Shown: positions 89-20,129 of the stretch, piece by piece
How the letters are laid out: every line of letters starts with the position of its first letter
Numbering within the stretch: position 1 is the stretch's first letter
Virus record (IMG/VR): IMGVR_UViG_2534681762_000006
DNA: 20,129 bases
Source: a virus
Lineage: Duplodnaviria; Heunggongvirae; Uroviricota; Caudoviricetes
Direction: 5' to 3' (one strand)
Translations under genes and position numbers: made by a program
Notes under the pieces: generated by a model
The model's input: only the letters and a program-made list of their open reading frames with translations
Databases searched by the model: none
What the model was told of the DNA's origin: nothing

Positions 89-3048
89 TATGCAAGCCTC
101 ACAATATAGTTAAATGCGATGTTTTTGACGGTGTTTTCCGCGTTACCAGCAGCGTTAACGGTGATGGTGTGTCCATGTGAACCAATCGCAACGGAGTGCG
201 TGTGTGCACCAATACCGACAGTATGTGCGTGTGCACCTGCAGATGCTGCTGTGCCGGACAGTGAGTGGCTATGGTTACCATCTGTACTGGTATTAGCTAA
301 CGCCCCCGTAGACATACCTACTGAGCCTTGTACACCCCAGGTATTTTGACCTGAGCTTGTATAACCATATTGATAAGTATCTTTAAAAACACTGGGGTTA
401 AATCGACGGCCATCTCTATGGCTGTGATTACCAGCTGCATTCGTGCTGCCACTTAAACTATGGGTATGCGCACCAGTGTTATTCGTGGATTTAGTGCCGT
501 AATCAAACGACGATGTGGTTTTCGTCCCCAAATCAGTACTGGATGCGCTGGCGCTGTGGGTATGCGATTTTATGCCGTCCTGTTCCTGAGACAATACGGC
601 ACGACCACTGGCGGGCTTGCCCTTAATCGTCCAGCCACGCATATCAGGGATCACGCCTGACGGATAAGCAACTGCAAGTTTCGGGTAAGCAGATTTGTCA
701 AAAGTCTGCCCCTGCATCAGGGCATAGCCAGACGGAACGGTATCTGATGGCCACGGGATTGGTGCGCCAGGCGGATAAAACTGCTCTGATGGCGTATAGA
801 GTGAATAAACTGTACCGTCCGTTAACCCTTCCGGCTTATTAGCAGAATATGCTGGTGACGTATGAATCGTCACGCTGGCATTACTGGTATAATCCCATTG
901 AATATTTACACCAGTCGCATAATTTCCGATTGCAACGTAAATATCGTAAGTATCACCAGATGTATTGACCCAGGCAAAATTTGTAAACCCTGTCGATGTG
1001 CGCTGCCATAAAGCACCAGTAATCCCCTTCGGATTACCATTACCTGCACGTAAAACAAGTTCAGATATACCTGCCTGTTGAGGTGACCCCACGTTAAATC
1101 CAGCGCCACCAATCAACGTAATTGAAACAACAGAACTCGCCTGTGGCATGGTTACCGTTGCTAATTTGAACCAACCAGCACCACCGCTGAATGACATTGT
1201 TGTTGAGTTAAGCGTACCAATATCTTTCGGCGTCAGTGTTATATCCGCTGAAAGCGCCTTACCATTCACCTTACGGGCAGAAGGTACCCGACCATTCGCA
1301 TTGTCATTAGCTGCTTTCACTGCTTTCGGTGTCGCAGCAAGCGTTTCAGATGTGCTGTTGGTTGCACTACTGAGCTGGACAATTCCTTTTTGTGCTGTCG
1401 TAGCGTCCTGTGCGGTGTATTTCCCGTTAGCCAGGTCATACGCGGCCTTAACGGCTTTTGGCGTTGCCGCCAGTGACTCGGAAGTGCTGTTAGTCGCACT
1501 GCTGAGCTGAACTATCCCTTTCTGTGCTGTCGTTGCATCCTGTGCGGTGTATTTCCCGTTAGCCAGGTCATACGCGGCCTTAACGGCTTTTGGCGTTGCC
1601 GCCTGTGACTCGGAAGTGCTGTTGGTCGCACTGCTGAGCTGTACTATCCCCTTTTTCGTCGTGCTCGCATCCTCAAGCGCCACGGCGGATGCAATATCCT
1701 CTGCCCGTTTTGCTGCTGTCTCGGCGCGCGTTGCCGCGGATTCCGCCGTACTTTTGCTCTGTGCTGCCGCTGCCGCACTGCCAGCAGCCTCTGTCGCCTT
1801 CGTGGATGCCGTCGTGGCGCTGCCCCTCGCTGCTGACGCCTGTCTGGTCGCCTCATCTTTTGAAGCAGACGCAGATGATGCCGATGACGCCGCCGAACTG
1901 GCGGACGATGCGGCAGCCGTTTTTGAGGATTCTGCGCTGGTTTCCGACGCTTTCGCGTTCGTTTCGGATGTCTTCGCTGCGGAAGCAGACCTCGCTGCTG
2001 CGCTGGCCTGTTCAGTGGCTTCGCCAGCCTTCGTTGTGGCTGTTGAAGCGGATGATGCGGCGCTTTCTGCCGATTTTCCGGCGGCGGTGGCACTGACTGC
2101 TGCCTCCTCTGCCTTAATGGACGCCTCACGGGCCGATGATGCAGCTGCTGTCTCAGAGTCTGCCGCAGCTGAGGCGCTCTGTTCCGCTGCCGTTTCAGAA
2201 GACCTGGCATTCGTCTCGGACGTTTTTGCCGCCTTCACGGAATTTCCTGCCGCCGTTGCCGAGGAGGCTGCACTGCTGGCGCTTGTGGAGGCGTTCGTTT
2301 CTGATGATTTTGCCGCCTCTTTGGAGGCCGCCGCATCTCTGGCTGAAGTGGCGGCTTCTGACGCTTTCGTCGTCGCAGTGGATGCAGAAGTGGCTGCTGA
2401 TTTTTGTGACGCTGCAGCATTCGTTTCTGACGTTTTCGCCGCACCGGCACTGGTGGCCGCCGCGCTTTTTGAGGACTCTGCAGCGGCAGCACTTTTTGAT
2501 GCTTCAGTGGCCTTTGTTGATGCCGTTCCTGCGCTGGAAGACGCCTCCTGAGCCGAAGTCGCGGCCTGTCCGGCTGACGTGCTGGCTGCACGCGCTGAGC
2601 CTGCAGCATCAGTCGCATGGGTTGCCGCCTCACGGGCAGATGTGCCGGCATCACTGGCTGACTTCTTCGCGGCTGCCGTGTTCTGTGCCACCACGGACGC
2701 GTTACGCGCCACCTCTTCCACCATCAGTTCAAAACGGCGCAGAGCCTCCGGACGGGCATCATCCTCCGTCATGGCACCGAGAAAATCATTCAGCGTACCG
2801 GGTCGGGAATCTTCATACACGGTGATGGTCCCGGCATGTGACGGCGGGAATCCTTCCACCAACAGAATAACGCTGTACTGACCGTACTCAACGTCCATGC
2901 TGTAACGCCCGGCTTCATCCGGATTTTCTGAGGCCAGCGTGTTCACCACCACCGAGGTGCTGTTACGTTTTGCTTTCAGCTGGATTGTGCAGTTCTGTAC
3001 CGGTTTTCCTGTGCCGTCTTTCAGTACACCTGAAATCTTTACTGCCAT
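88..3048 (-). CDS. stf: side tail fiber protein Stf (about 986 aa), with a long Ala/Ser/Thr-rich shaft, three tandem 44-aa repeats and a His-rich C-terminal tip
   Basis: ORF 88..3054 (-). N-terminus [26 protein letters not shown] and C-terminus [24 protein letters not shown] match lambda Stf as I recall it. The likely true start is the ATG at 3046-3048; the ORF track begins at an upstream GTG. Confidence 0.9.
1270..1665 (-). repeat. three tandem in-frame 132-bp repeats inside stf, each encoding a 44-aa unit ([43 protein letters not shown])
   Basis: The string tgcggtgtatttcccgttagccaggtcatacgcggccttaacggcttttggcgttgccgcc recurs at about 1411 and 1543, a period of 132 bp. The protein shows three consecutive 44-aa units, the third diverged. 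Confidence 0.85.
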
Positions 3049-3112: not shown

Positions 3113-3712
3113 TCAGAACTTATAACCGACACCCACGATGAAACCGTCAGTGCGCCAGTCGCCACTGCCGGAGCCTTCATAAGCAATATCAATGGCCACG
3201 GATTCGGTCGGGTTAAACTGCACGCCAGCTCCCCACGCCAGAGACGTGTTGCTGTGGCGACCGTCATCACTTCCGGTCAGCACGTCGTGCGTTTTCCCCT
3301 TGTTGTCAGTTACGCGGAGATAATCCCCGGAGAAAGTCGACACACGGCTGTAAGCCACACCCGCCATCGCATACGCGCTGAACCATTCATTCACGCGCAC
3401 AGACGGCCCCGCCATTACGCTGAACCAGCGGTTACGAACGGAATCTTCATGCCAGCGAGTATCGCTGTAATGGGTCAGCTGGCGATTCTTGTCTCCTGCA
3501 TAGCTGAATGACGTCACCAGCCCCAGCGTATCCGTAAACTCATAACGGTATTTCACGTTAATCCCGTTCAGATCATCACTGCCGGGAACGTTGGTCCGGG
3601 CATGAAGATACCCCGCGCTCAGCGTGGACTGATGTTCAGACGCCCATGCAGGCGCACCGGATACGGCCAGACAAATGGCTGCGGACAAAATGGCGGCACA
3701 AACTTTACGCAT
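3113..3712 (-). CDS. lom: Lom/Ail-family outer membrane beta-barrel protein (prophage moron)
   Basis: 199-aa ORF with an N-terminal signal peptide (MRKVCAAILSAAICLAVSGAPAWA) and the C-terminus IAYEGSGSGDWRTDGFIVGVGYKF shared with lambda Lom. It occupies the lambda position between J and stf. GAGAGG Shine-Dalgarno upstream of the ATG. Confidence 0.9.
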   Translation of the reverse strand: MRKVCAAILSAAICLAVSGAPAWASEHQSTLSAGYLHARTNVPGSDDLNGINVKYRYEFTDTLGLVTSFSYAGDKNRQLTHYSDTRWHEDSVRNRWFSVMAGPSVRVNEWFSAYAMAGVAYSRVSTFSGDYLRVTDNKGKTHDVLTGSDDGRHSNTSLAWGAGVQFNPTESVAIDIAYEGSGSGDWRTDGFIVGVGYKF

Positions 3713-3823: not shown

Positions 3824-4639
3824 TCACCGTACAGTCGGTGATATTGCCTGCCCCCTGATTGCCTTCTGGAAAATCTTAAACTCCAGAGTGACGCTACCAC
3901 CACCACTAGGCATATCAATAACTGCACTGTAACTACCGGGAATGGCCCCTTTAGTTTCTCTGGATGCGATTAATACGCCGTTTTTGCGAACTTCAAAACC
4001 ATAACCCGTGTATCGCGTGCCTCCCGAGTTATTTCCGCTCCCCGGATCGTCATACGCTATACCGTTAAAAATAATGGGCGGAATAATAATCTGGCGGTCA
4101 AAGTTATGATCATCGCTGATGGTGACTGTAACCGTACCGTCTGGTGTTTCCGTGTTACCCCACGTACCGACTTTTTTCGGGAAGGCTTTTGATACAGCTT
4201 TAACGAAATCCCCTCTGACCTGGGTCGCCTCCAGCATGCCCTTAATCGTACAGTTCTGGTTAATCGTGACATTGTTGAGCGTTCCTGAGTTCGCATTCAC
4301 ACTGCCACTGATATCCGCATTTTTAGCGGTCAGCTTTCCGTCTGATGTCAGGGAAAATACCGGAGGACTGCCACCACTGGTAATGGTGGGGGCCGTCAGG
4401 CGCTTCAGGAACACGTCGTTCATGAATATCTGATTGCCCTGCGCCACAAACATCGGCGTTTCATTCCCGTTTGCCGGGTCAATAAATGCGATACGGTTAG
4501 CGGCAACCAGAAACTGACTCAGTTTGCCTTCCTCCGTGTCCTCCATGCTGAGGCCAATACCCGCGACATAATGTTTGCCGTCTTTGGTCTGCTCAATTTT
4601 GACAGCCCACATGGCATTCCACTTATCGTTGGCGTCCTT
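3824..4639 (-). CDS. J: host specificity protein J, C-terminal receptor-binding segment, lying downstream of an in-frame TGA
   Basis: Same reading frame as ORF 4640..7195. The codons after the TGA read [81 protein letters not shown], which matches the lambda J C-terminal region as I recall it. The last ~150 aa diverge from lambda. Confidence 0.85.
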
Positions 4640-7198
<2,559 letters not shown>

Positions 7199-9271: not shown

Positions 9272-9600
9272 CAGTTCACCACCTGTTCAAACTCTGCGCT
9301 GAACTCAACACGCAACATACTGACCCGCGACGACCATTTTGCGCAGGTCACCTTTATCTGCCGCCACTCATAAGGCGGCGTCCACAGAAAGGATTTCCAG
9401 CCCCCGTGCTCTTCCAGAAACGACTCCAGTACCGTGGCCTCCTCACGGGGGACAGAAAGCGTCACGCTGTACGTTTTCAGGTTGGCATTCAGCCCGGCAG
9501 GCGCTCGCTGAGAATAGCCATCACCAAAGCGCACCTTTCTTACAGAAGGGACCGAAGCCACATCCATACCGGGTTTCACTTTCCAGCGGAAGGTCTTCAT
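9271..9600 (-). CDS. M: tail tip assembly protein M
   Basis: 109 aa, the same length as lambda gpM. Its start overlaps the H stop by 4 nt (ATGA) and its stop abuts the L start, as in lambda. Confidence 0.9.
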   Translation of the reverse strand: MKTFRWKVKPGMDVASVPSVRKVRFGDGYSQRAPAGLNANLKTYSVTLSVPREEATVLESFLEEHGGWKSFLWTPPYEWRQIKVTCAKWSSRVSMLRVEFSAEFEQVVN

Positions 9601-10301
9601 CGTCCACCTCCGGAGAACAGGCCACCATCACGCATCTGTGTCTGAATTTCATCACGGGCACCCTTGCGGGCCATGTCATACACCGCCTTCAGAGCAGCCG
9701 GACCTATCTGCCCGTTCGTGCCGTCGTTGTTAATCACCACATGGTTATTCTGCTCAAACGTCCCGGACGCCTGCGACCGGCTGTCTGCCATGCTGCCCGG
9801 TGTACCGACATAACCGCCGGTGGCATAGCCGCGCATCAGCCGGTAAAGATTCCCCACGCCAATCCGGCTGGTTGCCTCCTTCGTGAAGACAAATTCACCA
9901 CGGTGAACAATCCCCGCTGGCTCATATTTGCCGCCGGTTCCCGTAAATCCTCCGGTTGCAAAATGGAATTTCGCCGCAGCGGCCTGAATGGCTGTACCGC
10001 CTGACGCGGATGCGCCGCCACCAACAGCCCCGCCAATGGCGCTGCCGATACTCCCGACAATCCCCACCATTGCCTGCTTAAGCAGAATTTCTGTCATCAT
10101 GGACAGCACGGAACGGGTGAAGCTGCGCCAGTTCTGCTCACTGCCGGTCAGCATCGCCGCCATATTCTGTGCAATACCATCAAAGGTCTGCGTGGCTGCA
10201 CTTTTTACCTGCGACATACTGTCCGTGGCGCTCTCTTCCCACTCACTCCAGCCGGACTTCAGGCCTGCCATCCAGCTCCCGCGAAGCTGGTCTTCAGCCG
10301 C
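9597..10301 (-). CDS. H: tail tape measure protein H, C-terminal segment (234 codons) downstream of an in-frame TAG
   Basis: In frame with ORF 10302..12158. It reads AAEDQLRGSWMAGLKSGWSEWEESATDSMSQVKSAATQTFDGIAQNMAAM...RDGGLFSGGGR, matching the lambda gpH C-terminus. Confidence 0.88.
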   Translation of the reverse strand, partial: AAEDQLRGSWMAGLKSGWSEWEESATDSMSQVKSAATQTFDGIAQNMAAMLTGSEQNWRSFTRSVLSMMTEILLKQAMVGIVGSIGSAIGGAVGGGASASGGTAIQAAAAKFHFATGGFTGTGGKYEPAGIVHRGEFVFTKEATSRIGVGNLYRLMRGYATGGYVGTPGSMADSRSQASGTFEQNNHVVINNDGTNGQIGPAALKAVYDMARKGARDEIQTQMRDGGLFSGGGR

Positions 10302-12158
10302 CTAGGTCTTTTTCTGCTCTGACATGACGTTATTCAGCGCCAGCGGATTATCGCCATACTGTTCCTTCAGGCGCTGTTCCGTGGCTTCCCGTTCTGCCTG
10401 CCGGTCAGTCAGCCCCCGGCTTTTCGCATCAATGGCGGCCCGTTTTGCCCGTTGCTGCTGTGCGAATTTATCCGCCTGCTGCGCCAGCGCGTTCAGGCGC
10501 TCCTGATACGTAACCTTGTCGCCAAGTGCAGCCAGCTGGCGTTTGTACTCCAGCGTCTCATCTTTATGCGCCAGCAGGGATTTCTCCTGTGCGGACAGCT
10601 GGCGACGTTGTGCCGCCTCCTCCAGTACCGCGAACTGACTTTCTGCCTTCCACAAATCCCGGCGCTGCTGGCTGATTTTCTCATTCGCTCCGGCATGCTT
10701 CTCCAGCGTCCGGAGTTCTGCCTGAAGCGTCAGCAGGGCAGCATGAGCACTGTCTTCCTGACGATCGCCCGCAGACACCTTCACGCCGGACTGTTTCGGC
10801 TTTTTCAGCGTCGCTTCATAATCCTTTTTCGCCGCCGCCATCAGCGTGTTGTAATCCGCCTGCAGGATTTTCCCGTCTTTCAGTGCCTTGTTCAGTTCTT
10901 CCTGACGGGCGGTATATTTCTCCAGCGGCGTCTGCAGCCGTTCGTAAGCCTTCTGCGCCTCTTCGGTATATTTCAGCCGTGACGCTTCGGTATCGCTCTG
11001 CTGCTGCGCATTTTTGTCCTGTTGAGTCTGCTGCTCAGCCTTCTTTCGGGCGGCTTCAAGCGCAAGACGGGCCTTTTCACGATCATCCCAGTAACGCGCC
11101 CGCGCTTCATCGTTAACAAAATAATCATCCTTGCGCAGATTCCAGATGTCGTCTGCTTTCTTAAACGCAGCCTCTGCCTTAATCAGCATCTCCTGCGCGG
11201 TATCAGGACGACCAATATCCAGCACCGCATCCCACATGGATTTGAATGCCCGTGCTGTCCTGTCTGCCCAGGTTTCCAGCGTGCCCATGTTCTCTTTCAA
11301 GCGTCGGGTCTGGTCATCAAACCCTTTCGTTGCGGCCTCGTTCGCCGCCTGCAATGCCCCGGCTTCATCGCCGGAACGCTGCAACTGAGCAACATACGCA
11401 ATCTGCTCCGCCGTCACGTTATGGAACTGGCGTGCCATCGCCGTCAGCCCCGACGTCGGGTCTGTGGTCAGCTTCCCGAAGGCTTCAGCGACCTTGTCCA
11501 CCTCCACGCCGGATGCAGAGGAGAAACGCGCCACACTCTGGCTGATGGACGCAATCTGAGCCTCACCGCTTACCCCCGCCTTAACCAGTGCGCTGAGTGA
11601 CTCGCTGGTCTGGTTAAACGTCAGCCCTGCCGCCTGCCCGGCTCTGGACAGGACCAGCATACGATCTGCCGTCAGTCCCGCCTGATTGCCGGAAAGGACC
11701 AGCGTTTTGTTGAAATCGGACAGGGTTGAGTTGCCCTGATACCAGGCATACGCCAGCGCTCCGGTCGCCACCGCCAGCGAGGTAGCCCCCACCATCGGCA
11801 GGGTGATCGCACCGGCAAGCCCCCGGAACATGGGGATCATCCCGCCGAAGGAGTCCTTCACCTGACCCCCCTGTTGCAGCAGGATCAGCCACGGACTTTG
11901 CCCGCCTGCAAGCTGCGTGGCCACGTCAGTGAACTGCGCAGGCAGCATACGCATGGCGGCTTTATACTGCCCGACGGAAATTCCCGCTTTCTGTGCAGCC
12001 AGCGCCTGCCGGTTCATCGACTGTTCAACGACTGCCGCTGTTTTTTTCGCATCACTTTCCGTACCGGAAAAATGACGCCTGACTCTGGCCATCTGCTCGT
12101 CAAATCTGGCCGCATCCAGACTCAAATCAACGACCAGATCGCCTACCGGTTCAGCCAT
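10302..12158 (-). CDS. H: tail tape measure protein H, N-terminal 618 codons, ending at an in-frame TAG (10302-10304)
   Basis: Starts MAEPVGDLVVDLSLDAARFDEQMARVRRHFSGTESDAKKTAAVVEQS. The segments total 618 + 1 + 234 = 853 codons, exactly the lambda gpH length. The stop sits where I recall Trp in lambda (...MSEQKKT-W-AAEDQL). Confidence 0.9.
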   Translation of the reverse strand: MAEPVGDLVVDLSLDAARFDEQMARVRRHFSGTESDAKKTAAVVEQSMNRQALAAQKAGISVGQYKAAMRMLPAQFTDVATQLAGGQSPWLILLQQGGQVKDSFGGMIPMFRGLAGAITLPMVGATSLAVATGALAYAWYQGNSTLSDFNKTLVLSGNQAGLTADRMLVLSRAGQAAGLTFNQTSESLSALVKAGVSGEAQIASISQSVARFSSASGVEVDKVAEAFGKLTTDPTSGLTAMARQFHNVTAEQIAYVAQLQRSGDEAGALQAANEAATKGFDDQTRRLKENMGTLETWADRTARAFKSMWDAVLDIGRPDTAQEMLIKAEAAFKKADDIWNLRKDDYFVNDEARARYWDDREKARLALEAARKKAEQQTQQDKNAQQQSDTEASRLKYTEEAQKAYERLQTPLEKYTARQEELNKALKDGKILQADYNTLMAAAKKDYEATLKKPKQSGVKVSAGDRQEDSAHAALLTLQAELRTLEKHAGANEKISQQRRDLWKAESQFAVLEEAAQRRQLSAQEKSLLAHKDETLEYKRQLAALGDKVTYQERLNALAQQADKFAQQQRAKRAAIDAKSRGLTDRQAEREATEQRLKEQYGDNPLALNNVMSEQKKT

Positions 12159-15657: not shown

Positions 15658-16308
15658 ATGAATGCACGAAAAGCGGTACTGGCAGACAATCCGGAATTGA
15701 TCCTGCGTGTGCTACAACTGAGATTTGACGAGTCACTGTCGTACCCGCGCATTTCTGCGCAGACCGGTATCAGCAAAACCGCCATTTTTTCTCTGGTGAG
15801 GCGATTTCACCAGGTATTCACTGACTGGCCTCTTTCCGGAGAATATTCCTGCGTGCAACTGGCCCGGGCTCTGTTCCCGGGGCGATACCCTTCAGCCCCG
15901 ACAGTGACTCAGCCTGTGAAAACAGAGAAAATCCGCCGGAACCGATTTTCACCGGAGTTTAAATGGAGGCTTGTTCAGCAAACTCTTTTACCCGGTGCCT
16001 GTGTCGCACAAATAGCTCGTGAGAACGGAATCAACGATAACCTGCTCTTTAACTGGCGGCATCTCTGGCGTAACGGCGGCCTGCAGCCGACCGGCGAACA
16101 TGAAACATCGCTACTTCCCGTGACGTTAACTCCGGAGCCGGATAATAAAATCCCGGCACCAGTGCAGATACCTGAACAGATAAATACACCGCCCGACAGT
16201 CTGTGCTGTGAGCTGGTTCTGCCGGCCGGAACTCTCAGGCTGAAAGGTGAACTGACACCGGCGTTATTACAGACACTTATCCGCGAAATGAAAGGGAGCA
16301 GCCACTAA
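15658..16308 (+). CDS. tnpA: IS66-family accessory protein TnpA (Orf1), helix-turn-helix
   Basis: 216-aa ORF, first gene of the IS. Its stop overlaps the tnpB start (ATGA). Contains a transposase-like helix-turn-helix region (RRNRFSPEFKWRLVQQTLLPGACVAQIARENGINDNLLFNWR). Confidence 0.75.
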   Translation: MNARKAVLADNPELILRVLQLRFDESLSYPRISAQTGISKTAIFSLVRRFHQVFTDWPLSGEYSCVQLARALFPGRYPSAPTVTQPVKTEKIRRNRFSPEFKWRLVQQTLLPGACVAQIARENGINDNLLFNWRHLWRNGGLQPTGEHETSLLPVTLTPEPDNKIPAPVQIPEQINTPPDSLCCELVLPAGTLRLKGELTPALLQTLIREMKGSSH

Positions 16309-16655
16309 TGATATCTCTCCCTGCCGGTTCGCGTATCTGGCTGGTTGCCGGTATCACCGACATGCGAAATGGTTTTAACGGCCTGGCATCAAAAGTTCAG
16401 AACGTCCTGAAGGATGACCCGTTCTCCGGGCATCTGTTCATCTTCCGCGGACGCCGGGGTGACCAGATAAAAGTGTTGTGGGCTGACAGTGACGGACTGT
16501 GCCTCTTCACCAAACGCCTGGAGCGGGGCCGCTTCGTCTGGCCGGTTACCCGTGACGGCAAGGTGCACCTTACTCCGGCTCAGTTATCTATGCTTCTTGA
16601 AGGTATCAACTGGAAGCACCCGAAACGAACGGAACGCGCTGGCATCCGCATATAA
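16308..16655 (+). CDS. tnpB: IS66-family protein TnpB (Orf2)
   Basis: 115 aa: MISLPAGSRIWLVAGITDMRNGFNGLASKVQNVLKDDPFSGHLFIFRGRRGDQIKVLWADSDGLCLFTKRLERGRFVWP, the typical IS66 Orf2. Confidence 0.88.
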   Translation: MISLPAGSRIWLVAGITDMRNGFNGLASKVQNVLKDDPFSGHLFIFRGRRGDQIKVLWADSDGLCLFTKRLERGRFVWPVTRDGKVHLTPAQLSMLLEGINWKHPKRTERAGIRI

Positions 16656-16674
16656 CCCGTTGTAAAGTGAGGAT

Positions 16675-18228
16675 ATGGACACCTCACTTGCTCATGAGAA
16701 TGCCCGCCTGCGGGCACTGTTGCAGACGCAACAGGACACCATCCGCCAGATGGCGAAATACAACCGCCTGCTCTCACAGCGGGTGGCGGCTTATGCTTCC
16801 GAAATCAACCGGCTGAAGGCGCTGGTTGCGAAACTGCAGCGCATGCAGTTCGGTAAAAGCTCAGAAAAACTTCGCGCTAAAACCGAACGGCAGATACAGG
16901 AAGCCCAGGAGCGAATCAGCGCACTTCAGGAAGAAATGGCGGAAACGCTGGGTGAGCAATATGACCCGGTACTGCCATCCGCCCTGCGCCAGTCTTCAGC
17001 CCGTAAGCCGTTACCGGCCTCACTTCCCCGTGAAACCCGGGTCATCCGGCCGGAAGAGGAATGCTGCCCGGCCTGTGGTGGTGACCTCAGTCCTCTGGGG
17101 TGTGATGTGTCAGAGCAACTGGAGCTTATCAGCAGCGCTTTTAAGGTTATCGAAACACAACGTCCGAAACTGGCCTGTTGCCGGTGCGACCATATCGTGC
17201 AGGCACCAGTACCTTCAAAACCCATTGCACGCAGTTATGCCGGAGCGGGGCTTCTGGCTCATATCGTCACCGGGAAGTATGCAGACCATCTGCCGTTATA
17301 CCGCCAGTCAGAAATATACCTTCGTCAGGGCGTGGAACTGAGCCGCGCCACGCTGGGGCGCTGGACCGGTGCCGTTGCTGAACTGCTGGAGCCGCTGTAT
17401 GACGTGCTGCGCCAGTATGTGCTGATGCCCGGTAAAGTCCATGCGGATGATATCCCCGTTCCGGTCCAGGAGCCGGGCAGTGGTAAAACAAGAACTGCCC
17501 GGCTGTGGGTCTATGTCCGTGATGACCGTAACGCCGGTTCACAGATGCCCCCGGCGGTCTGGTTCGCGTACAGCCCGGACCGGAAAGGTATCCATCCACA
17601 GAATCACCTGGCCGGTTACAGCGGTGTGCTTCAGGCAGATGCTTACGGTGGTTACCGGGCGTTATACGAATCCGGCAGAATAACGGAAGCCGCGTGTATG
17701 GCCCATGCCCGGAGAAAAATCCACGATGTGCATGCAAGAGTGCCAACCGACATCACCACGGAAGCCCTGCAGCGTATCGGTGAACTGTATGTCATCGAGG
17801 CAGAAGTCCGGGGATGTTCAGCAGAACAGCGTCTGGCAGCAAGAAAAGCCAGAGCGGCTCCACTGATGCAGTCACTGTATGACTGGATACAGGAACAGAT
17901 GAAAACACTGTCGCGTCACTCGGATACGGCAAAAGCGTTCGCATACCTGCTGAAACAGTGGGAGGCCCTGAACGTGTACTGCAGTAATGGCTGGGTGGAA
18001 ATCGACAACAACATCGCAGAGAACGCCTTACGGGGAGTGGCCGTAGGCCGGAGAAACTGGCTCTTCGCGGGTTCCGACAGCGGTGGCGAACATGCGGCGG
18101 TGTTGTACTCGCTGATCGGCACATGCCGTCTGAACAATGTAGAGTCCAGAAAAATGGCTTGCGTTACGTTATTGAGCATATCCAGGACTGGCCGGCAAAC
18201 CGGGTACGCGAATCTGTTGCCCTGGTAA
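16675..18228 (+). CDS. tnpC: IS66-family DDE transposase TnpC, C-terminus frameshifted inside the first unit of the tandem duplication
   Basis: 517-aa ORF with an N-terminal coiled-coil and a CxxC...CxxC zinc-ribbon-like motif (CPACGG...CCRCDH). It ends ...[34 protein letters not shown], whereas the duplicated unit and the second IS copy read ...[37 protein letters not shown](T/S)SQ. Confidence 0.88.
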
Positions 18229-18660
18229 AGTTGATCTGACTTCTCAGTAAATATCAATACGGTTCTGGCGAGCCGCTTACAGATGAAAACACTGTCGCGT
18301 CACTCGGATACGGCAAAAGCGTTCGCATACCTGCTGAAACAGTGGGAGGCCCTGAACGTGTACTGCAGTAATGGCTGGGTGGAAATCGACAACAACATCG
18401 CAGAGAACGCCTTACGGGGAGTGGCCGTAGGCCGGAAAAACTGGCTCTTCGCGGGTTCCGACAGCGGTGGCGAACATGCGGCGGTGTTGTACTCGCTGAT
18501 CGGCACATGCCGTCTGAACAATGTAGAGCCAGAAAAATGGCTGCGTTACGTTATTGAGCATATCCAGGACTGGCCGGCAAACCGGGTACGCGATCTGTTG
18601 CCCTGGAAAGTTGATCTGACTTCTCAGTAAATATCAATACGGTTCTGGCGAGCCGCTTAC
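17897..18660 (+). repeat. direct tandem duplication of the IS66 right end: unit 1 at 17897..18280 (384 bp) and unit 2 at 18281..18660 (380 bp), each ending in the right inverted repeat
   Basis: Unit 2 repeats unit 1 from agatgaaaacactgtcgcgtcactcgg through gagccgcttac. Unit 1 differs by four 1-nt insertions (gagtccag vs gagccag; ggcttgcg vs ggctgcg; gcgaatctg vs gcgatctg; ccctggtaaag vs ccctggaaag) and one substitution (ggagaaactgg vs ggaaaaactgg). Confidence 0.9.
18283..18630 (+). CDS. TnpC C-terminal fragment (115 aa) encoded by duplication unit 2; an intact version of the transposase C-terminus
   Basis: [115 protein letters not shown]. Near-identical to the C-terminus of the second IS copy. 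Confidence 0.7.
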   Translation: MKTLSRHSDTAKAFAYLLKQWEALNVYCSNGWVEIDNNIAENALRGVAVGRKNWLFAGSDSGGEHAAVLYSLIGTCRLNNVEPEKWLRYVIEHIQDWPANRVRDLLPWKVDLTSQ

Positions 18661-18668
18661 TCAGGATC
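18661..18668. repeat. target-site duplication TCAGGATC, right copy
   Basis: See the left copy. 8 bp is the characteristic target-site duplication length for IS66-family elements. Confidence 0.9.
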
Positions 18669-19398
18669 AGCCAACAGCATCAGCGGTGCTGACTGAATCA
18701 TGGTGAACTCACGCGCCGGATCGCCGGTGGTCACCCAGTTTTTCGGGTAGCGGGCAGAGGCGTTAATACCTTCGCGCTGTGCGTCCGCATCCTGAATGCA
18801 GCCATAGGTGCGCAGACCGCGTGCCTGAGTGTTCCCCAGCACCATCGTGTTGTCCGGCAGGAAGTTCTTTTTGACGTCGTTTTCCACGTACTGTCCGGAA
18901 TACACGACGATCGCCGTATCGCCATACATCCCCTTATAGGACACCGCTTCGCCCAGGTCTTTTACCGCTGTCTCCAGCTCGGAATTAGAGCCGCGACGGG
19001 TATCCAGCTTCTCCTTGACGGCTTTGAAGGAACGGAACAGCGCCCAGCCTTTCGGATCAAACACGATGATATTCACCACGCCGCTGGCGTTCAGCGCGTA
19101 GGCTTCGATATCGTCGGTCGGGTCATACGTGGACTTGTCACGCTTGCTCCACTCCGTGCCGCCGGACTGCGTGATGTTGTTCGCCGCACTGCGGCCCATA
19201 TCCACCTCAACCGGATCGAAGGCTTCACCGGTCATGGTGTATTTGCCCTTGAGCACGGCAGAAACTGCCTGCATCTCTTCGACCTGAGCAATGGCCAGCT
19301 CTTCGTCACGCATGTTCTGCAGGATGATGCGACGGCGGCGGTAAGCCGGGTCCGCCAGATTCTGCGGATCTTCATCCGGCAGGCGACGCAGGGTCATC
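18661..19398 (-). pseudogene. E: major capsid protein E, internal fragment (about codons 91-333 of 341), bounded on both sides by IS66 ends
   Basis: ORF 18657..19397 translates to MTLRRLPDEDPQNLADPAYRRRRIILQNMRDEELAIAQVEEMQAVSAVLKGKYTMTGEAFDPVEVDMGRS...MIQSAPLMLLADP, matching lambda gpE from an internal Met. The terminal Glu and TAA stop are created at the IS junction. Confidence 0.88.
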
Positions 19399-20129
19399 GT
19401 AAGCGACTCGTCAGAACCGTATTGATATTTACTGAGAGCTCAGATCAACTTTCCAGGGCAACAGATCGCGTACCCGGTTTGCCGGCCAGTCCTGGATATG
19501 TTCAATGACGTAACGCAGCCACTTTTCTGGCTCCACATTGTTCAGACGGCATGTGCCGATCAGCGAGTACAACACCGCCGCATGTTCACCACCGCTGTCG
19601 GAACCCGCGAACATCCAGTTTTTCCGGCCTACGGCCACTCCCCGTAAGGCGTTCTCTGCGATGTTGTTGTCGATTTCCACCCAGCCATTACTGCAGTACA
19701 CGTTCAGTGCATCCCACTGTTTCAGCAGGTATGCGAACGCTTTTGCCGTATCTGAGTGACGCGACAGTGTTTTCATCTGTTGCTGTATCCAGTCATACAG
19801 TGACTGCATCAGTGGCGCGGCTCTGGCTTTTCTTGCCGCCAGACGCTGTTCTGCTGAACAGCACCGGACCTCTGCCTCGATGGCATACAGTTCACCGATA
19901 CGCTGCAGGGCTTCCGTGGTGATGTAGGTGGGCGCTCTTGCATGCACATCGTGGATTTTTCTCCGGGCATGAGCCATACACGCGGCTTCCGTTATTCTGC
20001 CGGATTCGTATAACGCCCGGTAACCACCGTAAGCATCGGCCTGAAGCACACCGCTGTAACCGGCCAGGTGATTTTGTGGATGGATACCTTTCCGGTCCGG
20101 ACTGTACGCGAACCAGACCGCCGGGGGCA
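19399..20129 (-). mobile_element. second IS66-family copy in inverted orientation, partial (runs off the right edge); its right inverted repeat abuts E at 19399
   Basis: Plus strand at 19399 reads gtaagcgactcgtcagaaccgtattgatatttactgag, the reverse complement of the first copy's right end with 2 mismatches in 38. Internal sequence encodes the TnpC C-terminal half on the minus strand. Confidence 0.85.
19429..20129 (-). CDS. tnpC: IS66-family transposase TnpC, C-terminal portion (5-prime part lies beyond the window)
   Basis: ORF 19429..20049 ((M)[60 protein letters not shown]...KVDLSSQ); the frame stays open upstream to the window edge (...[27 protein letters not shown]). It shows several amino-acid differences from copy 1 (for example VPTDITT vs APTYITT, WEAL vs WDAL, NWLF vs NWMF). 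Confidence 0.85.

Follow-up and report, generated by a model that had tools for sequence, protein, structure and literature searches.

Variation in the number of tandem PF03406 repeats in a side tail fibre gene of a defective lambda-like Escherichia coli prophage

The side tail fibre gene stf of a defective lambda-like prophage was analysed within a window of 20,129 nucleotides, this being the whole stretch of DNA studied. It is highly probable that positions 1270-1665 of this window encode three tandem 44-aa repeats of the PF03406 family which join the shaft of the fibre to its distal part, that the copy number of these repeats varies by exchange between the first two units, and that the conserved core of the unit is a junction between fibre modules. 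That such repeats form a family, that lambda Stf contains one and that tail fibre genes are mosaic are long-established facts. As a discovery the array therefore matters little, being a catalogued repeat in a well-known mosaic gene, real but ordinary; it does offer a clear case from nature of a tail fibre repeat whose sequence directly displays both product types of unequal exchange.

The Gene and Its Prophage

The features of the gene and of its product are collected in Table 1. By its sequence, stf belongs to the lambda-type side tail fibre genes, because the product has the PF08400 N-terminus, matches over residues 1-94 the 94-residue 'Tail fiber protein' chain of PDB 9e7m (E 5e-51), ends in a tip resembling that of T4 gp37 (aa 744-986 against PDB 2xgf, E 8e-86) and is encoded between lom and tfa. 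The Pfam families found in the product were PF08400 (aa 1-134), PF03406 in three copies, PF07484 (aa 761-808) and, weakly, PF03335. The order J - lom (3113-3712) - stf - tfa, read from the open reading frames and from the annotation of the near-identical locus of E. coli SA186, is that of a lambda-like tail cluster; in SA186, the near-identical gene of the same length is annotated as a prophage tail fiber protein, and the overlap between stf and tfa is annotated as well. Many genomes have annotated genes with 98-99% full-length identity to it, and the exact full-length Stf protein was absent from a collection of 15 billion proteins that was queried with and without the stop codon.

Table 1. 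Coordinates of stf, its modules and the adjoining tfa gene in the window
Feature	Position	Strand	Basis or remark
stf, side tail fibre gene, 986 aa	88-3048	minus	ATG at 3048, TAA at 90-88; ORF, Pfam and PHROG tail fibre families
N-terminal virion-attachment domain (aa 1-134)	2647-3048	minus	PF08400, E 4e-71
Shaft rich in Ala/Ser/Thr with a heptad period (aa 120-455), presumably a trimeric coiled coil	1684-2691	minus	composition and periodicity
Repeat unit 1 (aa 462-505)	1534-1665	minus	head unit, abuts the shaft
Repeat unit 2 (aa 506-549)	1402-1533	minus	internal unit; 119/132 nt as in unit 1
Repeat unit 3 (aa 550-593)	1270-1401	minus	diverged terminal unit, moving with the distal module
Distal region (aa 594-743), fold unassigned	820-1269	minus	no Pfam or PDB match
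Collar and needle-like receptor-binding tip with His-x-His motifs (aa 744-986)	91-819	minus	PDB 2xgf, PF07484
tfa 5' end (tail fibre assembly gene)	1-88	minus	ATG overlaps the stf stop; continues beyond the window

Alanine, serine and threonine make up 72% of the shaft (aa 120-455), whose self-identity reaches 0.39-0.42 at lags of 7, 14, 21 and 28 residues against 0.13-0.24 at other lags, and the equivalent segment of Ur-lambda Stf has been modelled as a proximal coiled coil (PMC12617516). Shaft length variants among the relatives differ by 105 or 112 aa, and a 336-nt indel separates the shaft of the window gene from that of the FORC_029 gene. Behind the array, the distal 150 aa gave no Pfam match and aa 585-760 gave no PDB sequence match at E<=10; this distal region was found behind both Stf-type and P2 gpH-type N-termini, at 96-100% amino acid identity.

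The prophage that carries the gene is a decayed lambda-like prophage of E. coli and is defective, because J and H contain nonsense codons and elements of the IS66 family interrupt the head region. In J the nonsense codon is an in-frame TGA and in the tape-measure gene H an in-frame TAG, both of which fall at positions where, as we assume, lambda J and H have tryptophan. Judging from these lesions, the Stf fibre of the window is probably not assembled into virions by its own prophage, and the gene is therefore best seen as a reservoir allele.

Structure of the Repeat Array

The array covers codons 462-593 of the minus-strand stf gene, exactly 3 x 44 codons in frame. The preliminary description of this DNA was right about the interval 1270-1665 and about its reading frame, as well as about the position of the array between the Ala/Ser/Thr shaft, which ends at aa 455, and the distal region; its naming of the gene as a side tail fibre gene is borne out by the PF08400 domain, the 9e7m chain, the lom-stf-tfa order and the T4 gp37-like tip. 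It gave no strand for the gene, which lies on the minus strand. It had also presented the three 132-bp units as near-identical, which holds for units 1 and 2 and fails for unit 3, as detailed below.

Tandem Repeats Finder assigned a score of 524 to a 132-nt period present 2.3 times with 91% matches, and this was the sole long-period array across the 20-kb window; the array in stf is real and lies well above chance expectation. In Pfam, PF03406 (Phage_fiber_2, 'phage tail fibre repeat', 'Pf2') was recovered in three stretches with an E value of 1.1e-54 and 182.2 bits against a gathering cut-off of 22, the best stretch covering profile positions 1-41 of 42. The units, which start at aa 462, 506 and 550 and are thus spaced by 44 aa inside a tail fibre protein, belong to this family. 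When the whole protein was used in the PDB sequence search, unit 3 matched residues 97-157 of the Mu tail fibre protein S (PDB 5yvq, 8ju3); when the repeat region of 132 aa was queried alone, the only PDB match was again Mu S, at residues 97-153. According to Ghosh et al. 2012 (PMC3368898), it was in lambda stf that the PfN and Pf2 (PF03406) domains were originally recognized, and their structure was then little known.

Units 1 and 2 are alike at 119 of 132 nt (90%) and 40 of 44 aa (91%), 9 of their 13 nucleotide differences falling within the first eight codons, and they have in common a perfect run of 66 nt at unit positions 63-128, i.e. at 1538-1603 and 1406-1471 of the window. They are recent duplicates or a homogenised pair. 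The nucleotide identity of unit 3 to units 1 and 2 is 60-64% and its amino acid identity 68-77%, the longest exact run shared with either of them is 11 nt, and its last seven codons bear no relation to theirs. Unit 3 is an old paralogue that has retained its likeness at the protein level only and that is part of the distal module.

Each unit is composed of a strongly conserved core, with one S/T position inside it, and a short linker. Over core codons 5-37, units 2 and 3 differ at 25 codons, 22 of them synonymously and 3 non-synonymously, so that the core is under strong purifying selection at the protein level; such selection points to a structural role for each unit and is silent on whether the number of units matters.

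Unit Number in Related Fibre Genes

The number of units changes by whole units between otherwise near-identical genes, and complete E. coli genomes carry from one to three of them in the genes listed in Table 2. The stf gene of A2, for example, is separated from that of the window by a single clean gap of 132 nt. Among the IMG/VR and GTDB loci in which the shaft end and the distal 150 aa were both at least 96% identical, two units were present in 9 loci, three in many and four in L027 and L028, which confirms the expectation expressed in the preliminary description that copy number would vary among related prophages.

Table 2. Unit number of stf in complete E. coli genomes
Genome	stf product	Units	Relation to the window gene
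SA186 (L001)	986 aa	3	99.9% across the repeat region (1100-1850), 98.3% for the gene as a whole
A2 (L002)	942 aa (986 - 44)	2	99.4% over 2829 nt, one clean 132-nt gap
NDM_11.16372 (L004)	1008 aa	2	different tip
FORC_029 (L003)	944 aa	1	more diverged

The 4-unit allele was also found in at least 4 complete genomes, as a single alignment at 99-100% identity. The flanks of the 1- and 5-unit alleles are more diverged. The 5-unit allele, with a shaft 98% identical and a distal region 85% identical, is known from two IMG/VR contigs of one genome and was not found among the complete E. coli genomes searched.

The comparison of homologues that had been proposed as a check likewise showed that the triplet is not invariant: in a census of 97 complete ORFs, skewed to relatives of the 3-unit query and including draft assemblies, 26 had one unit, 15 two, 33 three, 14 four, 8 five and a single one seven. 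This census was run by hmmsearch --max; the default filters drop single-unit fibres, such as StfR and those of several phages, owing to the low-complexity shaft. BLAST span arithmetic was taken as a lead only, overlapping pieces making its unit counts unreliable. Cultured phages are represented as well, with one unit in Ur-lambda, PhiR34_1, PhiR29_1, 2H10 and Chlobot and two in PhiR42_1, mEp460_ev081 and Salmonella phage SPF_0923, and StfR of K-12 has one unit. Literature searches retrieved no description of Pf2 copy-number variation in stf.

Module Exchange at the Array and Fibre Geometry

Comparison with other fibre types shows that the array is also a junction for the exchange of fibre modules. 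With PF12571-type fibres of 3-4 units, a DNA identity of 93-96% begins at gene nt 1405 (aa 469), where the core starts, and continues through the distal region, and K-12 stfR and lambda stf are homologous to the gene from its 5' end as far as aa 490-494, where the core ends; the breakpoints of BLAST alignments to complete genomes gather at these places too. Because homology with other fibre types starts or stops there, the core serves as a shared patch of homology for the swapping of attachment and receptor-binding modules. The last residues of the terminal unit change together with the distal module, the StfR type ending in ...AYDNAEKRLQKDQ and lambda in ...VVMDETNRKAPLD, while the gene of the window differs from both. 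The pattern of breakpoints agrees with the view, long held, that unrelated phages exchange segments of their tail fibre genes horizontally (Haggard-Ljungquist 1992; Sandmeier 1992/1994; both cited in PMC3945230), and also with the recombination that has been demonstrated between lambda and stf genes of defective prophages (PMC3945230).

It is quite conceivable, if somewhat short of probable in our judgement, that the array matters mainly as such a homology patch for the exchange of receptor-binding modules and that the number of units is a neutral by-product without important structural effect. The breakpoints with lambda stf, StfR and P2 gpH-type fibres do lie within units, and the 2-, 3- and 4-unit alleles share one tip (99% identity), as would be expected just as well if the variation were neutral. 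The strong purifying selection on the core described above (22 synonymous against 3 non-synonymous differences) speaks against this reading insofar as it suggests a structural role per unit; it does not address their number.

A structural effect of unit number would take the following form. The unit, as inferred from its sequence, is a structural module of the trimeric fibre, and each additional unit would add 44 residues per chain. In Ur-lambda Stf, Yu et al. (PMC12617516) assign residues 394-422 of their model to a hinge that connects the proximal arm with the distal one, and the single unit, at aa 357-398, thus ends at this hinge. Added units would sit at the equivalent point, beside the knee, and would change the reach or geometry of the fibre; by this analogy, we infer that unit number may affect the length of the fibre or its hinge. 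Pf2 has also been tentatively read as a globular node between stalks in rotary-shadowed EPclB (Ghosh et al., PMC3368898). An AF2 monomer model of aa 440-640, made from an alignment of 30 sequences, had a mean pLDDT of 35.7 and a pTM of 0.17, too low for use.

A further-reaching idea, which we consider decidedly doubtful, is that Pf2 unit number might be a fast-evolving, selectable setting of the reach or knee geometry of the side tail fibre, tuned by unequal exchange on very short time scales and perhaps matched to the thickness of the surface polysaccharide of the host. Defective prophages would then be a reservoir of length variants that infecting phages take up via recombination.

Gain and Loss of Units

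The descent of individual units from unit 1 or unit 2 was read from the 13 diagnostic sites at which these two differ. In all the 2-unit alleles examined, the lone non-terminal unit reads 11111111111-22, matching unit 1 at sites 1-11 and unit 2 at sites 12-13, with an exchange interval at unit positions 62-129, inside the perfect run. The extra unit of the 4-unit allele reads 222222222-1111 (like unit 2 at sites 1-9 and like unit 1 at sites 10-13), with an exchange interval at unit positions 24-42, and the 5-unit allele holds two units with a unit-2 head and a unit-1 tail. The terminal unit is 97-100% identical among alleles with the same distal module, at any copy number.

A unit-1-head/unit-2-tail chimera in the shorter alleles and the reverse chimera in the longer ones are the two product types expected from unequal crossover, and the 2- and 4-unit alleles arose by separate events because their exchange intervals differ (62-129 against 24-42). 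Allele differences of whole units between near-identical flanks and chimeric head/tail junction units, by which an unequal-exchange polymorphism is recognized, were both found. Misaligned homologous exchange between units 1 and 2, or slippage between them, would lead to the gain or loss of whole units. Unit 3 is a poor partner in such recombination because its exact runs with the other units are 11 nt at most. The proposal that the repeats are substrates for unequal recombination is thus upheld for units 1 and 2, with their chimeric junction units and their 66-nt run, and scarcely extends to unit 3.

It is possible, though we think it rather unlikely, that the number of units is altered by slippage or template switching within one molecule rather than by crossover between molecules or prophages. 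Identical chimeric junction units would result if slippage took place between direct repeats of 132 nt that have 66 nt perfectly in common, and the different exchange intervals of the 2- and 4-unit alleles, hence their separate origins, agree with it. Against it, both reciprocal product types occur in nature, E. coli genomes often contain several stf copies (median 2 and up to 8 matching places per genome), and the stf of defective prophages is a ready recombination partner for lambda (PMC3945230). The sequences by themselves would not tell whether unequal crossover, replication slippage or gene conversion was at work.

It is highly improbable that the three copies are an assembly artefact in which a tandem array was collapsed or expanded. 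Many homologues are indeed 'partial' proteins encoded where a contig of 1-2 kb ends, and short-read assemblies often break in stf, but the 3-copy architecture was found at 99.9% identity in independent complete genomes (H1-H3; L001) and in at least 20 IMG/VR contigs, the units are distinguishable (by 13 sites between units 1 and 2 and by about 50 for unit 3) and the entire array measures merely 396 nt. A Gin/Cin/Pin-type invertase that uses a crossover site within the fibre gene, the mechanism of Mu, P1 and e14 and one that Sandmeier proposed (as cited in PMC3945230), has a vanishingly small probability of driving the variation: the 2-unit relative A2 does have pinQ downstream of tfaQ, but the window, which ends inside tfa, contains no AAACCNNGGTTT crossover core even when one mismatch is allowed and no AAACC..GGTTT core of the invertase-switched class (Mu G, P1 C and e14 P segments), the closest relative SA186 has no invertase adjoining tfa, and in-register changes of whole units with chimeric units are not an outcome of inversion.

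Two further points are of practical use. Counts of units are to be trusted only where an assembly runs across the entire array, and the conserved unit core could be used as a natural splice point for engineered chimeric fibres, with unit number as a candidate design variable.

Comparison with Known Systems

The likeness to T4 gp37 (2xgf) is limited to the tip, where aa 744-986 can be aligned to the domain of collar and needle, His-x-His motifs included; the 2xgf chain is itself a tip fragment. Stf of lambda (Ur-lambda), of 774 aa, is similar throughout its architecture, with the same N-terminal domain, the heptad Ala/Ser/Thr shaft, the repeat motif at the shaft end, the same gp37-like His-x-His tip and the same J-lom-stf-tfa gene order. 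It differs in having one unit (aa 357-398) where the gene of the window has three, in a shaft 105 aa shorter and in the segment between unit and collar, which is unrelated to that of the window gene. StfR of the K-12 Rac prophage, of 1120 aa, shares 94% DNA identity over aa 1-494, which comprise the N-terminus, the shaft and the first unit, and its tip is similar, whereas its single unit, ending in ...AYDNAEKRLQKDQ, is followed by a much longer and unrelated distal region.

The same repeat is also found in fibres of the P2 gpH type (PF12571 N-terminus), with 3-7 units in the loci examined, and in Mu S, with one unit at residues about 97-153. Some of the P2 gpH-type fibres even have the same distal module as the gene of the window, at 96-100% amino acid identity, but both they and Mu S have a different N-terminus for baseplate attachment and are without the long Ala/Ser/Thr shaft. 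Within the PF03406 family as a whole, database proteins, many of which are partial, have arrays that reach 9 or more units and alternate between periods of 44 and 56 aa, and all three units of the window match the 42-position profile end to end, with no essential difference from the other members.

Length variation in the side tail fibre and its database relatives

The side tail fibre gene, stf, varies in length among its relatives at the shaft as well as at the array of three 44-aa PF03406 units. Shaft lengths differ by 105 or 112 aa, each a multiple of seven, and in one relative the difference is due to an in-frame 336-nt indel; therefore, the shaft is a second length-variable element of the fibre. 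In other E. coli tail fibres (proteins P0021, P0025 and P0030) long arrays were observed in which 44-aa units alternate with 56-aa units, the latter using a second linker type (..AGKAPSSHTHPWNQITGVPTA..), so that each pair forms a 100-aa super-repeat and the arrays reach up to 9 or more units.

The database homologues P0001-P0120 were mostly "partial" tail fibre proteins that end where a short contig ends; certain clusters of them comprised hundreds of members. Breaks inside stf are common in short-read assemblies, and therefore the repeat-unit counts taken from draft genomes are lower bounds. The loci L099-L113, found on GTDB genome contigs, all matched lambda stf orf-401 over equal length and with equal identity (77%) in assemblies labelled Pseudomonas, Shewanella, Paenibacillus, Enterococcus, Kitasatospora and others, and the contigs carrying several of these matches were about 48.4 kb long and had low coverage. 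They most likely represent lambda DNA contamination of those assemblies.

Decay of the tail and head genes

An in-frame TGA (context ..EEFSKE*KDANDKW..) breaks gene J into two ORFs, one of 851 aa and one of 262 aa, whereas the annotations of close relatives show an intact J. Since lambda J presumably carries Trp at this position, the lesion looks like a TGG to TGA change. In the same tail cluster, the tape-measure gene H is interrupted by an in-frame TAG (context ..SEQKKT*AAEDQL..), which we take to be another Trp codon turned into a stop by a G-to-A change, assuming that lambda H has Trp there. Disruption is seen in the prophage head region as well, which contains a complete IS66-family element with three ORFs (216, 115 and 517 aa), besides extra IS66 transposase fragments.

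Features of the prophage, with positions in the window
Feature	Position	Strand	Remarks
stf shaft, aa 120-455	1684-2691		Ala+Ser+Thr 72%; strict 7-residue periodicity
stf distal region, aa 594-743	820-1269		150 aa
stf receptor-binding tip, aa 744-986	91-819		His-x-His motifs
In-frame TGA in J	4640-4642	minus	gene J, 3824-7195
In-frame TAG in H	10302-10304	minus	gene H, 9597-12158
IS66-family element and further IS66 transposase fragments	15658-18228, 18283-18630, 19429-20049		
Major capsid gene, C-terminal remnant	18657-19397		IS66 sequences on both sides

Distal region and tip

Pfam and PDB sequence searches with the stf distal region returned no match. Together with the terminal repeat unit, this region is transferred as one block between Stf fibres of the lambda type and fibres of the P2 gpH type, with 96-100% amino acid identity. 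The receptor-binding tip closely resembles the needle domain of T4 gp37 (2xgf), the main difference being an insert of about 40 aa.
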